From: Bacteroidaceae bacterium
GTDB taxonomy: Bacteria > Actinomycetota > Coriobacteriia > Coriobacteriales > Coriobacteriaceae
Length of the DNA: 64,000 nucleotides
Reading direction: 5' to 3'
NCBI GenBank assembly: GCA_963630805.1
Contig: CAVGNZ010000051.1
Coordinates: 43,255-107,254 of the forward strand
The notes beneath the pieces are model-generated. The model did no database searches and was not told the DNA's origin. It was given only the letters and a program-made list of their open reading frames with translations. Shown here in pieces: positions 13,554-47,659 of this stretch. Numbering within the stretch: position 1 is the first letter of the stretch; the number at the start of each line of letters is the position of its first letter. Made by a program: the position numbers and the translations under genes.

Positions 13554-13805
13554 ATGAACGAATTCCAGGAAGAAGTAGTCGAGATCCTGAAGGACAAGGC
13601 CGTCGACATCTTTGGCGTCGACCGCGACAGCCTTTCTGCCGACACCCGTTTTGCCGAGGACCTGCACTGCAAGTCCGTGAACATCGTCCAGTTCGCCTCT
13701 GCACTCGAGGACGAGTACGAGGTCGAGGTGCCCTTCATGGAGCTTAACAAGAAGGCCACCTTCGCCGAGGCCGCCCAGTTCGTGGACGACGTCCTCTCTA
13801 TGTAG
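13554..13805 (+). CDS. Stand-alone acyl-carrier-protein-like protein (phosphopantetheine attachment site predicted at Ser41)
   Basis: 83 aa. FAEDLHCKSVNIVQFASALEDEYEVEVPF aligns by eye with the E. coli AcpP segment [29 protein letters not shown]. The Ser codon is at 13674-13676. RBS AAAGGA. Confidence 0.72.
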   Translation: MNEFQEEVVEILKDKAVDIFGVDRDSLSADTRFAEDLHCKSVNIVQFASALEDEYEVEVPFMELNKKATFAEAAQFVDDVLSM

Positions 13806-13877
13806 CAACCGCCGCGGGCCCGTGCGCGCCAGACGCCGCGGGCCCGCTTTCACTTCGCAGAAGAAAGGATCCAACCG

Positions 13878-14876
13878 ATGGCAACGCTCATCGAAAAGCT
13901 TATCGCCGACGCCAAGGGCACGCCCAAGCGCGTGGCGCTTCCCGAGTGCGAGGCGGCAAACACCCTGCTCGCCGCCCGCCGCGTGGCCGACGAGGGCATC
14001 GGCACCCCGGTTCTCGTGAGCCCGCGCGACGTGATCGAGGCCACGGCCAAGGAGGCCGGCGTCTCGCTCGAGGGCATGGAGATCGTCGACAGCACCGACG
14101 AGGCCGCGGCCGACGCGCTTGCCGAGCGCTACATGGCCTGCGGCACCCCGCGCCTGATCTCTGCCAAGGGTGCGCGCCGCAAGATCAAGAACCCCATGTA
14201 CTTCGCCATGATGATGGAGGAGCTGGGCGACGTTGACTGCACGTTCTGCGGCCATACCAACACCACCGGCGACGTGCTCATGTGCGCACAGACCATCATC
14301 GGCCTGGCCGAGGGCGTCGACGTGCCGAGCATCTTCGCGCTCGTGGAGACCGAGGGCTTCGAGGGCCCTGAGGGCAACGTCATCGCCTTTACCGACTGCG
14401 GTCTGAACCCCGAGCCCACCGCCGAGGAGCTGGCCTCCATCGCCATCTCCGCCGCCGACAACGTGCGCTCCATCATGGCTTGGGAGCCCCGCGTGGCGTT
14501 CCTCTCGTTCTCCACGGACGGCTCGGGCGCCGGCGTCTCCGTCGATCGCGTGAAGCAGGCCATCGAGCTTGTGCACGAGCGCCGCGCCGACCTGGCCGTC
14601 GACGGTGAGTTTCAGCTCGATACTGCCATCGACCCCAAGGTCGCCGCCAAGAAGGTCAAGCGCGAAAGCGACGTCGCCGGACGCGCCAACGTGCTGGTGT
14701 TCCCCGATCTCAACGCCGCGAACATCGCCGTCAAGCTTATCCAGTGCTTCGCTCACGGCGCGGCCTACGGCCATAACCTCTCGGGCTTCAAGTGCCCCGT
14801 GGCCGACTCGAGCCGCGGCGCCACGGTGGACGAGATCGTGGGCGACATCGCGATGCTCGTGCTCTCCGCGCGCTAG
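13878..14876 (+). CDS. PTA_PTB-family phosphotransacylase (phosphate acetyl/butyryl-transferase-like)
   Basis: 332 aa, short-form Pta architecture. C-terminal signature GRANVLVFPDLNAANIAVKLIQ resembles the Pta motif FPDLEAGNIGYK. Confidence 0.85.
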   Translation: MATLIEKLIADAKGTPKRVALPECEAANTLLAARRVADEGIGTPVLVSPRDVIEATAKEAGVSLEGMEIVDSTDEAAADALAERYMACGTPRLISAKGARRKIKNPMYFAMMMEELGDVDCTFCGHTNTTGDVLMCAQTIIGLAEGVDVPSIFALVETEGFEGPEGNVIAFTDCGLNPEPTAEELASIAISAADNVRSIMAWEPRVAFLSFSTDGSGAGVSVDRVKQAIELVHERRADLAVDGEFQLDTAIDPKVAAKKVKRESDVAGRANVLVFPDLNAANIAVKLIQCFAHGAAYGHNLSGFKCPVADSSRGATVDEIVGDIAMLVLSAR

Positions 14877-14885
14877 GCCCCGCAT

Positions 14886-15326
14886 ATGACTAAGTGGTCT
14901 TTGGAGGTCGTGCTGTGCGACCTGGTGCTCGCGCTCGTGATCAACACGTCGGCTATGCTCATCTCGGGTGCGGCCATCACGTTCCAGACCTGGTACCCGG
15001 GCGTGGCGAGCGCGTTTTTCACCAATGCGCTGCTGCAGCTCGTGCTGCCGGTGCCGGCCTGGGGGCAGCTACTGAGCCGCCCGCTTGCCGCCTCGCGCAT
15101 CCGCCCCGTTCTCTCGGTCTTTGTGGAGAACCTCGTCTTTGTGACCTGCATCTCCTTCACCATGGCGTGCATCCAGGCGCCGAGTGCGGCCCAGATCGTG
15201 CCCACGTGGCTTGCCACCTATGTCTACCTGGTGGGAATCGGCTACGTCACCTCGCTTGTCCTGTTTGCCGCCACGCACGGCGGTCACCTTCTGCTCGCAC
15301 CCGCGGCGGGCGCTATCGATTACTAA
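14886..15326 (+). CDS. Small integral membrane protein of unknown function (about 4 hydrophobic segments)
   Basis: It sits tightly between the phosphotransacylase stop (14876) and the kinase start (15348). Hydrophobic stretches include LVLALVINTSAMLISGAAI and VYLVGIGYVTSLVLFAA. I could not assign a family with confidence. Confidence 0.55.
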   Translation: MTKWSLEVVLCDLVLALVINTSAMLISGAAITFQTWYPGVASAFFTNALLQLVLPVPAWGQLLSRPLAASRIRPVLSVFVENLVFVTCISFTMACIQAPSAAQIVPTWLATYVYLVGIGYVTSLVLFAATHGGHLLLAPAAGAIDY

Positions 15327-45494: not shown

Positions 45495-45498
45495 GGCC

Positions 45499-46506
45499 AT
45501 GGACCTCATGCAGACCCTGCGCGAGCGCGCTGCCGCCTCGCCGGTGCGCGTGGCGTTTCCCGAGGGCGATAACGAGACCATGATGCAGGCGGTGGCCAAG
45601 CTCACCGCTGAGGGCCTGGCCAAGTGCGTGTTGGTGGGCGAGGGCGCCCAGCTGCACGATCTGGCTGCCGAGCGCGGCATCTCGCTCGAGGGCGTCGAGA
45701 TCGTCGACGTTGCCGACGAAGAGGCCAACGCCGCCTGCTGCGAGCGCTACCTGGCGCATCCCGACTGCCAGTTCAAGCCCAAGGGCGCTGCGCGCCGCAT
45801 GACCCGCCCGCTCGAGCGTTCGCTCATCATGCAGGTGCTGGGCGACGTGGACGTCACCTTCGCCGGTATCGATTACGCCACGGGCGACATCATCCTGGCC
45901 GGCCAGACGATCGTCGGCCTGGCCGACGGCGTGGACACCATCAGCTCGGTGGGCATCGCCGACGTTCCCGGTTGGGACGGCGGCGAGGGCGGTCTGATCG
46001 GCTTTGGCGATTCTGCCGTGTGCGTCGACCCCACAAGCGAGGAGCTCGCCTCTATCGCCATCAGCGGTTGCGAGACCGTCGCGGCCCTGACCGGCTGGGA
46101 CGTGCGCTGTGCCATGCTCTCGCACTCCACCGACGGCTCTATGGACAACGCGCTTGTCGACAAGGTGCGCGCTGCCCGTGACATCGCGAACGAACGCCGC
46201 CCGGACCTCAAGATCGACGGTGAGTTCCAGTTCGACTCCGCCATCAACCCTAAGGTCGCGGCCAAGAAGGTCCACCGCGAGTCCGAGGTCGCCGGTCGCG
46301 CCAACCTGCTTATCTGGCCCGATATCAACGTGGGCAACATCGGCGTCAAGATCATCCAGAACCTCACGGGCGCCAACGCCTACGGCCCCATGATCCAGGG
46401 CTTCAAGAAGATCGTTTGCGACTGCTCGCGCTCCGCGCCTGTCGACGAGATCGTCGGCAACGTGGTCATGAGCTGCGTGCGCGCTCAGGCGCTGAAGGAG
46501 GCTTAA
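45499..46506 (+). CDS. PTA_PTB-family phosphotransacylase (paralog of 13878-14876)
   Basis: GEFQFDSAINPKVAAKKVHRESEVAGRANLLIWPDINVGNIGVKIIQ here, against GEFQLDTAIDPKVAAKKVKRESDVAGRANVLVFPDLNAANIAVKLIQ in locus A. It starts 4 nt after the carrier-protein stop. Confidence 0.85.
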   Translation: MDLMQTLRERAAASPVRVAFPEGDNETMMQAVAKLTAEGLAKCVLVGEGAQLHDLAAERGISLEGVEIVDVADEEANAACCERYLAHPDCQFKPKGAARRMTRPLERSLIMQVLGDVDVTFAGIDYATGDIILAGQTIVGLADGVDTISSVGIADVPGWDGGEGGLIGFGDSAVCVDPTSEELASIAISGCETVAALTGWDVRCAMLSHSTDGSMDNALVDKVRAARDIANERRPDLKIDGEFQFDSAINPKVAAKKVHRESEVAGRANLLIWPDINVGNIGVKIIQNLTGANAYGPMIQGFKKIVCDCSRSAPVDEIVGNVVMSCVRAQALKEA

Positions 46507-46510
46507 AGGC

Positions 46511-47659
46511 ATGTCTACTGAGAGGAAACCCTGGCGCGTACTCGTTATCAACCCCGGCTCGACCTCTACCAAGGTGGGCCTCTTTGAGGGCGAGACCGCC
46601 GTATTCCAGAAGAACGTGGCACACGACGCGAGCGATCTTGCCAAGTTCGCCGGCGTCTCCGCGCAGATGCCGTACCGCTGCAAGCTGATTTTGGAGGCGC
46701 TCGACGAGGCGAACGTGGAGCTTGCCGACATCGATGCCTTTGTGGGGCGCGGCGGCGGCCTGATCGCCATGCCCGGCGGCACCTATACGATCGGCGAGAA
46801 GCTGCTTGAGGATGCGACCGCGGGCGCGAACGGCGTCCAGCACCCGGCGCAGCTTGGTCCCCAGATCGCCCACGAGTTTGCCTCCCGCTTTGGCAAGCCC
46901 GCCTTTGTGGTGAACCCGCCCGACACCGACGAACTGTGCGACCTTGCGCGCATGACCGGTATCGACGGCGTGTACCGCACCGTGCACCTGCATGCCCTGA
47001 ACCTCAAGGAGACGGCCATCCGCCATGCGGCCTCGATGGGACGCGCCTACAACGAGTGCAACTTCATCGTCTGCCATATCGGCGGCGGTATCTCCATCTC
47101 CGCGCACGAGCACGGCAAGATGGTCGACGGCAACGACATCGTCGGCGGCGAGGGCCCCATGGCGCCCACGCGCTGCGGTTCGGTGCCCGCCATCGAGGTC
47201 GCCAAGTACACGGCCGAGAACGGCCTGCGCGCCGCCCGCTCGCTGTGCATGAAGACCGGCGGCTTTGTGGACCTGCTCGGCACCTCGGACGCCATCGAGG
47301 TCTGCGAGCGCGCCGCTGCCGGCGACACCCGTGCCGCCCGCACCTGGGACGCCATGGTCTACCAGATCTGCAAGTGGATCGGCGAGATGTCCTGCGTGCT
47401 CAAGGGGCATGTCGACGGCATCCTGCTCGGTGGCGGCATGGTTCACAACAAGGACCTCGTGGCCGCGATCGAGGCGTCCTGCGGATGGATTGCGCCCGTT
47501 ACGGCGTACCCCGGAGAGTTCGAGCTCGAGGCCATGGCGGCAGGCGCCACCCGCGTGCTCGATGGCACCGAGGAGCCCCTTGTCTACACCGGCGAGCCGG
47601 TGTTCGCGGGCTTCGACGACGCCTCGCCGACCGACTCCGGCGCCGCCAGGGCCGCCTAG
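46511..47659 (+). CDS. buk: Butyrate-kinase-family acyl kinase (paralog of 15348-16472)
   Basis: VLVINPGSTSTKVGLFEG, IVCHIGGGISISAH and GKPAFVVNPPDTDELCDLARMTGIDGVYR, against GKPAFAVNQPDTDELEDVARITGWPGVYR in locus A. Confidence 0.9.
   Translation: MSTERKPWRVLVINPGSTSTKVGLFEGETAVFQKNVAHDASDLAKFAGVSAQMPYRCKLILEALDEANVELADIDAFVGRGGGLIAMPGGTYTIGEKLLEDATAGANGVQHPAQLGPQIAHEFASRFGKPAFVVNPPDTDELCDLARMTGIDGVYRTVHLHALNLKETAIRHAASMGRAYNECNFIVCHIGGGISISAHEHGKMVDGNDIVGGEGPMAPTRCGSVPAIEVAKYTAENGLRAARSLCMKTGGFVDLLGTSDAIEVCERAAAGDTRAARTWDAMVYQICKWIGEMSCVLKGHVDGILLGGGMVHNKDLVAAIEASCGWIAPVTAYPGEFELEAMAAGATRVLDGTEEPLVYTGEPVFAGFDDASPTDSGAARAA

Follow-up and report, generated by a model that had tools for sequence, protein, structure and literature searches.

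A carrier protein, a Pta-type phosphotransacylase and a butyrate kinase-type kinase recur behind different front-end enzymes in two gene clusters of a Coriobacteriaceae contig and may form a CoA-independent acyl-handling module

The window analysed here is a stretch of 64,000 nucleotides (G+C about 63%) from an assembly named Bacteroidaceae bacterium and placed by GTDB in the Coriobacteriaceae (GCA_963630805.1, contig CAVGNZ010000051.1, positions 43,255 to 107,254 of the forward strand); coordinates below count from its first letter. It holds two gene clusters that each encode a small carrier protein, a phosphotransacylase related to Pta and a kinase of the butyrate kinase (Buk) family, preceded by a catalytic "front end" that differs between the two. 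Cluster 1, on the plus strand, begins with a CocE/NonD-type (peptidase S15) serine hydrolase of 601 residues (10190-11995; Peptidase_S15 and PepX_C domains). An MFS transporter (12144-13439; MFS_1, 91 bits) separates it from carrier protein 1, which has 83 residues (13554-13805) and belongs to the S15-associated type (attachment motif "KS"). Then follow Pta-like phosphotransacylase 1 (332 residues, 13878-14876), a small membrane protein (146 residues, 14886-15326), kinase 1 (374 residues, 15348-16472) and, at the end of the cluster, an AEC-family (Mem_trans) transporter (16488-17423; PF03547, 101 bits). A PucR/CdaR-like transcriptional regulator is encoded divergently on the minus strand (8386-9951; start at 9951 with ATG or at 9957 with GTG).

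Cluster 2, also on the plus strand, opens with a TetR-family regulator (42199-42882; TetR_N and TetR_C_8). Its front end consists of a thiolase-family protein of the archaeal/SCP2 type (421 residues, 43255-44520; Thiolase_C_1, 101 bits) and a DUF35/ChsH2-type partner with a zinc ribbon and an OB-fold (44553-44972; zf-ChsH2, 24.6 bits). Carrier protein 2 (78 residues, 45258-45494) is of the thiolase-associated type with the motif GKGSMKMIAL, and is followed by Pta-like phosphotransacylase 2 (335 residues, 45499-46506), kinase 2 (382 residues, 46511-47659) and an MFS transporter (47747-48946; MFS_1, 95.9 bits). The gap between the DUF35 gene and carrier 2 is 285 bp of non-coding DNA without an Rfam match (44973-45257); in the homologous locus L001 (loci are numbered with an L) it is 160 bp. 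The spacer between carrier 1 and Pta-like 1 (72 bp, 13806-13877) contains CCGCGGGCCCG twice, 13 bases apart (CCGCGGGCCCGTGCGCGCCAGACGCCGCGGGCCCG); these repeats could form a stem-loop that sets the ratio of carrier to enzyme expression. An Rfam search upstream of the clusters for a riboswitch or known RNA that might name a ligand gave none; Rfam found five tRNAs only.

An earlier note on this DNA had described the two sets as one module duplicated within 30 kb with exchanged front-end enzymes. The resemblance of the enzymes, which had been judged by eye, is borne out by alignment: the two Pta-like proteins are 47% identical over 329 residues (E 1e-92) and the two kinases 49% over 363 residues (E 2e-121). 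For the carriers the resemblance is limited; both are PP-binding proteins with the attachment serine, but they share only 28% identity over 57 residues (E 7e-5). The order carrier-pta-buk is indeed kept, but cluster 1 is not a strict triad since the 146-residue membrane protein gene lies between pta and buk. Similarly, the upstream catalytic genes do differ (S15 hydrolase versus thiolase/DUF35), but in cluster 1 the S15 gene is not the immediate neighbour of the carrier gene. The regulators (PucR-like versus TetR) and the transporters differ as the note had stated. The sets are ancient paralogues and not the product of a recent local duplication: identity to orthologues from other genera is 69-87% for each copy, against only 47-49% between the paralogues themselves, and the carrier, Pta and Buk trees each contain two old sub-families. 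Together these two results led us to reject a recent duplication within this genome.

Both phosphotransacylases matched PTA_PTB (PF01515) over their full length (299.5 and 271 bits for Pta-likes 1 and 2; cut-off 24). Both scored below the cut-off of the Pta equivalog TIGR00651 (264.2 and 227.8 bits; cut-off 311.2) and far below that of Ptb (TIGR02706; 75.1 and 73 bits; cut-off 410.5). An assignment to Ptb was rejected on the latter scores, and one to PlsX because the Pfam search returned no PF02504 match. The presumed PlsX proteins in L055, L062 and L085, low-scoring hits of the Pta hidden Markov model (HMM) whose identity was taken from their position beside carrier hits of the fatty acid synthesis (FAS) type, gave 23-39 bits with the HMM of the clade described below. 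The two kinases, for their part, passed the butyrate kinase equivalog TIGR02707 (373.5 and 365 bits; cut-off 289.1), and the best PDB match of kinase 2 was T. maritima Buk2 (E 4e-83). By these profile scores the phosphotransacylases of the window class as Pta-type, not Ptb-type, and the kinases as Buk-type, which is an unusual pairing. It extends beyond the window: with the Buk HMM, kinases beside Ptas of the clade scored 498-680 bits and those beside canonical Ptas 45-90 bits. The Pta-like enzymes are thus not paired with acetate kinases; the neighbouring kinases are Buk-type.

Active-site residues were compared by using the numbering of M. thermophila Pta (Mt; structure 1QZT, the alignment reference). 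The catalytic Ser309 and Arg310 are present in both Pta-like proteins and in nearly all aligned full-length clade members. At the positions of Arg87 and Arg133, Pta-like 1 has Gly and Met, and Pta-like 2 has Pro and Leu. Iyer and Ferry are said to have found in 2001 that mutation of these two arginines affects the Km for CoA (coenzyme A). That mutation of Arg87 or Arg133 alters mainly a Km value is documented (PMC6461089). All 28 carrier-linked Ptas have lost both arginines, and of the 63 other Ptas that we compared 60 retain Arg87. A profile search of 1.84 billion representatives yielded 1783 relatives at E ≤ 1e-30; among the best 150 of these, approximately the top 50 share the double loss, and most of the lower-scoring canonical Ptas retain both residues. 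In a neighbour-joining tree the Arg-less sequences stood apart from canonical Ptas, with the two window proteins in different sub-clades. The clade is further marked by a deletion of Lys88-Lys90, by Trp at Mt position 200 (found in 38/48 clade members; 48 canonical Ptas most often have E, A or V there) and by the discriminating positions Gly161, Gly164, Lys95, Arg259, Phe301 and Ala312. In public databases its members are called "phosphate acetyltransferase" or "phosphate acyltransferase". Taken together, the scores below the Pta and Ptb cut-offs, the separate grouping and the loss of Arg87 and Arg133 place the two proteins outside ordinary Pta and Ptb; nesting with ordinary CoA-dependent Ptb/Buk pairs is what the earlier note had named as refuting its idea.

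We then looked at the company that these Ptas keep. One genome per GTDB species was scanned with the clade profile, so that the loci are a sample among the matches listed and not a census; the loci were searched with home-made HMMs, and gene calls in loci of high G+C are heuristic. Among 91 Pta genes, a carrier, a true Buk, an S15 hydrolase or a thiolase neighbour accompanied all 28 Ptas that lack both arginines and none of the 63 others. The latter, lower-scoring loci contain canonical Ptas, many in ordinary pta-ackA operons, and these Ptas pair with AckA-like kinases or stand alone; none had a Buk, carrier, S15, thiolase/DUF35 or phosphopantetheinyl transferase (PPTase) neighbour, and only distant ACPs (acyl carrier proteins) of the FAS type were seen. 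The 17 best loci (L010-L026) combine a carrier and/or a true Buk with an S15 or thiolase/DUF35 gene; their hosts are Syntrophaceae, Lachnospiraceae, Oscillospiraceae, Bacilli, Enterococcus, Atopobium, Olsenella and Coriobacteriaceae. Another 80 loci, all of the Arg-less type, were contributed by a metagenome scan. Neighbours within 9 kb were counted for 77 non-redundant clade members, which originate from Coriobacteriia, Lachnospiraceae, Oscillospiraceae, Bacilli and Syntrophaceae: a Buk was present in 53/77, a carrier in 51/77, an S15 hydrolase in 34/77, a thiolase/DUF35 in 23/77 and a PPTase (ACPS) in 23/77. In loci of at least 12 kb (n = 38) a Buk was found in 35 and a carrier in 33. Hence the triad exists in several phyla outside this genome, with two recurring front ends.

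Individual genes of the two clusters are conserved in place. Cluster 1 recurs gene for gene, the small membrane protein included, in Olsenella uli (87% identity for Pta) and Eggerthella sp. YY7918 (L005; 84% for Pta); in the Eggerthella locus an AcpS-type PPTase gene adjoins the regulator. The PucR-like regulator of the window, which gave weak NCBIfam matches to the C-terminal helix-turn-helix of CdaR/AdeR/PmfR, has orthologues of 518-529 residues with GGDEF_2 and HTH_30 domains at the same position in L002, L005 and L006. An MFS gene of the same family occupies the equivalent position in L005, L006 and L008. The 146-residue membrane protein (about three hydrophobic segments; G+C at third codon positions (GC3), 0.84) found no match in a Pfam search but is conserved, with orthologues in L005, L006 and L016, and adjoins 11/77 clade members; kinship with DUF1097, a membrane protein encoded after Buk in other loci, was rejected (hhalign probability 0.2%). 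Collinsella provencensis has a conserved cluster 2, with an Sfp-type PPTase gene 5' of the TetR gene. An orthologue of the cluster 2 TetR is found at the equivalent position in L001, and a TetR gene adjoins 16/77 clade members.

Between Collinsella and Eggerthella, members of different families of the Coriobacteriia, the cluster 1 proteins share 84% identity, and the Eggerthella locus has a G+C of 51% compared with 63% for the window. This identity seems high for such a taxonomic distance and suggests that cluster 1 may have been transferred horizontally.

The distribution bears on one alternative, namely that these are ordinary CoA-dependent fermentative Pta/Buk pairs and that the carrier serves something else or the front end alone. 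It would account for kinases that pass the butyrate kinase cut-off, for the retention of the catalytic Ser and Arg in the Pta-like enzymes and for the absence of Arg133 from some AckA-paired Ptas as well. However, it leaves unexplained why both Pta-like proteins score too low for the Pta equivalog and belong to a clade of their own that has a specific signature, and why that clade is associated with carriers, Buks and front ends in 28/28 versus 0/63 cases. Moreover, PPTase genes lie within the clusters, and neither cluster of the window contains a CoA-transferase or CoA-ligase gene. Finally, L118/L120 carry a canonical Ptb-Buk pair in addition to the triad, which argues that the triad neither duplicates nor replaces CoA-based phosphorylation. 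We therefore regard the CoA-dependent explanation as very unlikely.

The earlier note had left room for the carrier genes being chance open reading frames (ORFs). Both products exceeded the Pfam PP-binding (PF00550) threshold of 20.8 bits (32.6 and 33.9 bits for carriers 1 and 2), and both retain the attachment serine, which alone is invariant among 26 carriers. They are strongly acidic (net charge -13 for carrier 1 and -11 for carrier 2), and PPTase genes adjoin 23 of the 77 homologous clusters, lying inside the cluster in L001, L005, L009, L090 and L092. They are thus to be counted as genuine carrier proteins, predicted from sequence to be phosphopantetheinylated. Both remained below all NCBIfam cut-offs for FAS ACP equivalogs (best scores 42 and 23 bits; cut-offs 66-146). 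In the window itself the ACPS HMM found no PPTase gene. In Enterococcus raffinosus (L014, 134-7362), a carrier, a PPTase and an Arg-less Pta are encoded with no Buk nearby and with a phosphoketolase gene 3 kb away; phosphoketolase makes acetyl-phosphate.

The carriers separate cleanly by front end: carrier 1 groups with S15-linked carriers (motif D-L-x-x-K-S-V-N/D...LEDE-Y/F-EVEVP) and carrier 2 with thiolase-linked ones (motif LGKGSMKMIAL). The trees of Pta and Buk largely follow this split, but hybrids occur. L002 combines an S15 hydrolase and an S15-type carrier with a Pta of the cluster 2 type and one Buk of each sub-family, and L015 has two Buks. Both triad types lie side by side in the metagenomic loci L126, L137, L141, L152, L158 and L166-168, which suggests that their presence in one genome is common. 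The notion of a reusable back end that is attached to differing front ends is therefore supported with one refinement. Since the carrier co-evolves with the front end, a more apt description of the exchange has the front end and its carrier as one unit and Pta and Buk as the other.

Both front ends belong to families that work via a covalent acyl-enzyme. The S15 hydrolase passed the CocE/NonD family TIGR00976 (185.8 bits; cut-off 66.3), and its best PDB match was 3IB3 (E 1e-93). Its nucleophilic serine, in the motif GNSGV, is invariant in 10 homologues. The ATG at 10190 is preceded by the ribosome binding site GAGAGGAG, and the exact 601-residue product is present in the protein collection. 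The protein lacks a signal peptide and a transmembrane segment and hence is cytoplasmic; this location and the strong acidity of the carriers are consistent with a cytoplasmic ACP pathway. In the thiolase, whose 421-residue product is likewise in the protein collection (in its 90% cluster, members bear the name thiolase family protein [Collinsella sp.]), the Cys-Cys pair (SEACCTGY) and the His (GHAHGASG) are invariant. Its best PDB matches were 7YVY, 6ESQ and BbsB, with PhlC weaker; 7PXP was also among the matches. The four cysteines of the DUF35 partner (CxxC...CxxC zinc ribbon) are also invariant, and this protein gave weak PDB matches to DUF35 proteins. That the thiolase is a close homologue of PhlC was considered but found no support, archaeal-type thiolases being closer; PhlC matched with 64-66 bits over the C-terminal 100 residues only, and PhlB gave E-values of 0.19-0.96. 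In two other loci a URO-D-family protein is encoded next to clade genes: directly 5' of the carrier and Pta-like genes in L011 (8324-9466) and adjoining the thiolase and Pta-like genes in L138. The URO-D family includes methyltransferases of O-demethylase systems, and these proteins may represent a third kind of front end.

On balance, and reasoning from sequence, we lean towards the view that each cluster encodes a CoA-independent acyl-handling pathway with a dedicated phosphopantetheinylated carrier, with flux directed to ATP and a role in polyphenol catabolism. A substrate would enter via the MFS transporter and be attacked by the front-end enzyme to give a covalent acyl-enzyme, Ser-O-acyl in the case of S15 and Cys-S-acyl in the case of thiolase/DUF35. 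The carrier thiol, rather than water or CoA, would then accept the acyl group, so that the front end would hand it over as acyl-S-ACP. This would be the thiol substrate of the Pta-like enzyme, which would use phosphate to convert it to acyl-phosphate (phosphorolysis). The Buk-type kinase would transfer the phosphoryl group to ADP, yielding ATP and the free acid, and the acid would leave via the second transporter. Acyl-phloroglucinol-type compounds (beta-polyketones) or other energy-rich acyl compounds of anaerobic flavonoid and polyphenol breakdown would be the likely substrates. The C-C bonds of beta-polyketones such as acyl-phloroglucinols have a transfer potential like that of a thioester, as the PhlABC acyltransferase shows, and this fits a phloroglucinol or flavonoid context.

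The clues to a polyphenol substrate come from neighbouring genes in other genomes. A PucR-like regulator adjoins 29/77 clade members; catabolic-type regulators and transporters also flank both clusters of the window. An FMN_red protein adjoins 22/77 clade members, and its only PDB match was the flavone reductase FLR (7D38, E 7e-29). A flavoprotein resembling fumarate or urocanate reductase (FAD_binding_2) adjoins 19/77, and MBL-fold proteins adjoin 10/77. All of these neighbours recur beside both triad types, as do an Fe-S/NAD(P)H oxidoreductase of 700 residues and a small Fe-S protein resembling NuoF. The genes for phloroglucinol degradation that have been characterised in Clostridium scatologenes (PGR, DPGC, TfD and TAL; PMC10470551) directly adjoin the triad in five distinct loci (L009, L118/L120 and L108, which are S15-linked or partial; L122, which is DUF35-linked; and L148). 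L016 contains a GH106 rhamnosidase, a glycoside transporter and TIM barrels resembling xylose isomerase, and L024 a clostridial 2-enoate reductase.

Genes for 2-hydroxyacyl-CoA dehydratases (HGD-D plus activator) recur beside S15-type triads (L002, 12301-16735; L091, 2028-5257; L101-L111, L147 and L173), which hints at a link to the metabolism of aryl-lactates or 2-hydroxy acids. In the S15-type cluster of L092, a protein resembling NMO/FabK (enoyl-ACP reductase II family; 12685-13659) is encoded after Buk and an MBL-fold protein; this would be compatible with chemistry on a carrier-bound acyl group.

A bolder version of the catabolic pathway can be put forward. Here the S15 "hydrolase" and the thiolase/DUF35 pair would really be acyltransferases. 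From the breakdown products of flavonoids and tannins they would transfer acyl groups to a private ACP by cleaving C-C bonds of the acyl-phloroglucinol type or ester bonds of comparable energy. A Pta switched from CoA to ACP, together with Buk, would then convert the acyl-ACP to ATP. This ATP-yielding, CoA-independent route would replace hydrolytic steps such as phloretin hydrolase and be widespread in gut Coriobacteriia and Clostridia. We consider this version possible but less likely than not.

The main rival runs the same reactions in the opposite direction, in the manner of FakAB-PlsX. The Buk would phosphorylate an imported acid and the Pta-like enzyme would load it onto the carrier; the acyl-ACP would then serve as substrate for thiolase/DUF35 (cleavage or condensation), S15 (acyl transfer) or reductases. 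ATP would be spent first and may be recovered when the product is unloaded. Both reactions are reversible in the canonical families, and a thiolase normally needs a thioester substrate, the closest characterised relatives of this one being acetoacetyl-CoA thiolases. Genes resembling ene-reductases (FLR-like, FAD_binding_2 and the FabK-like NMO protein of L092) recur by the triad, and their products could act on an enoyl-ACP. The two Buks in L002 and L015 would fit the loading of one acid and the unloading of another, and the L014 set of Pta-like protein, carrier and PPTase, which has no Buk and lies 3 kb from a phosphoketolase gene, also suits activation. On the other hand, a serine hydrolase as the commonest partner is left unexplained, one Pta/Buk pair would have to handle several acyl groups, and the clusters of the window lack the condensing or tailoring enzymes of a biosynthetic pathway. 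In our estimate activation is the less probable direction, and rather unlikely.

The gene content also allows a small biosynthetic pathway, polyketide-like or making an acyl-amide, in which an acid would pass via acyl-phosphate onto the ACP, be condensed by the thiolase or transferred by S15, and be exported as product. Biosynthetic clusters typically encode a dedicated ACP, a PPTase, a thiolase-fold enzyme and MFS exporters, and the MBL-fold proteins beside 10 of the 77 clade members are possible ACP thioesterases. However, genes for a ketosynthase, an acyltransferase, a reductive loop or tailoring are all absent, and the neighbours are catabolic (phloroglucinol pathway, glycosidases, 2-hydroxyacyl-CoA dehydratases). 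The regulators are of the PucR and TetR types, and the hosts are strictly fermentative gut anaerobes. Biosynthesis is, in our view, quite improbable.

Several points speak against the catabolic, ATP-yielding pathway that we prefer. The module is predicted from its genes, and so is a flux toward ATP. Ordinary esters and amides are too low in group-transfer potential for thioester formation, so that the model needs energy-rich substrates, and Buk-family kinases are known for short aliphatic acids. The triad Buks stand apart from canonical Buks in the tree, in which three canonical Buks, a small sample, are the only reference; all trees are neighbour-joining trees without support values. Acetoacetyl-CoA thiolases are closer relatives of the thiolase than PhlC is, and the family and PDB searches of the window showed no PhlA homologue. 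Arg133 alone is missing from several AckA-linked Ptas, which have Q, E or K there, and Arg87 and Arg133 belong to CoA "site 2", the role of which is debated (PMC6461089). For these two reasons the loss of the arginines is suggestive of ACP use, but it is not proof. Neither cluster of the window is adjoined by FLR-like, reductase or phloroglucinol genes; the polyphenol link is weakest for these two clusters, where it is made by association only.

Between the clusters lies a patch of lower G+C or lower GC3 (17547-24151) that may be acquired DNA. It includes an ORF of 348 residues with a weak match to the REase_MTES_1575 endonucleases (GC3 0.66), a ParE toxin gene on the minus strand (21717-22103) and a PMT_2-like membrane glycosyltransferase gene (22529-24151) in surroundings of 55% G+C. 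An M24 peptidase gene flanked by two genes for Opp-type solute-binding proteins and followed by OppBCDF forms a peptide-uptake locus (26331-35624). At 37456-40547, a PAS-GAF-SpoIIE (PP2C) phosphatase gene precedes one for a STAS-HATPase_c_2 fusion, which looks like a partner-switching regulatory pair. The five tRNA genes are at 37279-37365, 40672-40986 (three in tandem) and 42056-42127; one of them ends 72 bp 5' of the cluster 2 TetR gene. The region 3' of cluster 2 (49325-59940) encodes a P-II protein, a PotA-type ABC transporter, a protein of the ornithine cyclodeaminase family and an Fe-alcohol dehydrogenase, as well as a redox set (Fer2_4, Pyr_redox_2, Fer2_BFD/SO_alpha_A3 and DAO) that resembles an opine or D-amino-acid dehydrogenase.

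If the catabolic pathway is correct, a dedicated ACP would be a third thiol currency of substrate-level phosphorylation, besides CoA and enzyme-bound thiols, and a Pta-family enzyme would have come to use ACP in place of CoA, independently of PlsX. Bond cleavages now assumed to be simple hydrolyses could then supply ATP to gut anaerobes such as Collinsella, Olsenella, Eggerthella, Lachnospiraceae and Oscillospiraceae, and estimates of the energy yield of dietary polyphenol degradation would change. For annotation, the absence of Arg87 and Arg133, the Lys88-Lys90 deletion and Trp at Mt position 200, combined with an adjacent carrier, separate the clade from canonical Ptas in the loci examined.

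A full-text literature search, with most subscription-journal papers outside its coverage, found no description of an ACP-Pta-Buk system, and the gene set is apparently undescribed. Judged by score, by the two arginines and by pairing with AckA, the module falls outside canonical Pta; it also falls outside Ptb, PlsX and PhlABC, and inside Buk, PP-binding carriers, S15 and DUF35-partnered thiolases. It resembles Pta-AckA and Ptb-Buk in its enzyme families (PF01515 and the acetate/butyrate kinases) and in the chemistry from thioester via acyl-phosphate to ATP. Those systems depend on CoA, however, whereas the module pairs a Pta-type enzyme, below the cut-off and devoid of Arg87 and Arg133, with a Buk-type kinase, adds a dedicated carrier and often a PPTase, and has no CoA-forming enzyme in the cluster. 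Catabolic systems in which a dedicated protein thiol, and not CoA, carries an acyl group are citrate lyase, malonate decarboxylase and protein C of glycine reductase; glycine reductase releases this group as acetyl-phosphate, which serves ATP synthesis. The ACPs of the citrate lyase and malonate decarboxylase type carry another prosthetic group and belong to other families, and these complexes have no Pta or Buk homologues. To our knowledge, FakAB-PlsX-AcpP is the only well-known system in which a phosphotransacylase and a kinase interconvert acyl-phosphate and acyl-ACP. It is the nearest functional analogue of an ACP-dependent Pta/Buk pair, yet its enzymes are from unrelated families; it serves lipid synthesis with the housekeeping ACP, whereas the carrier of the module is dedicated and its context catabolic. 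The Pseudomonas PhlABC system, composed of the thiolase-like PhlC, the DUF35 protein PhlB and PhlA, carries out CoA-independent acyl transfer on acyl-phloroglucinols via a Cys-acyl enzyme. Like cluster 2 it combines a thiolase-fold protein with a DUF35 partner; unlike cluster 2, whose matches to PhlC and PhlB are weak and which showed no PhlA, it includes no carrier, Pta or kinase. In the published flavonoid and phloroglucinol pathways acyl-phloroglucinols are cleaved hydrolytically and CoA is used for ATP formation, with no mention of a carrier protein (PMC7862272, PMC10470551). Compared with the gut flavonoid pathway (FLR, CHI, enoate reductase and phloretin hydrolase), the module shares its surroundings: homologues of FLR, reductases of the enoate/fumarate type and the full PGR/DPGC/TfD/TAL set of the phloroglucinol pathway adjoin the triad in several genomes.

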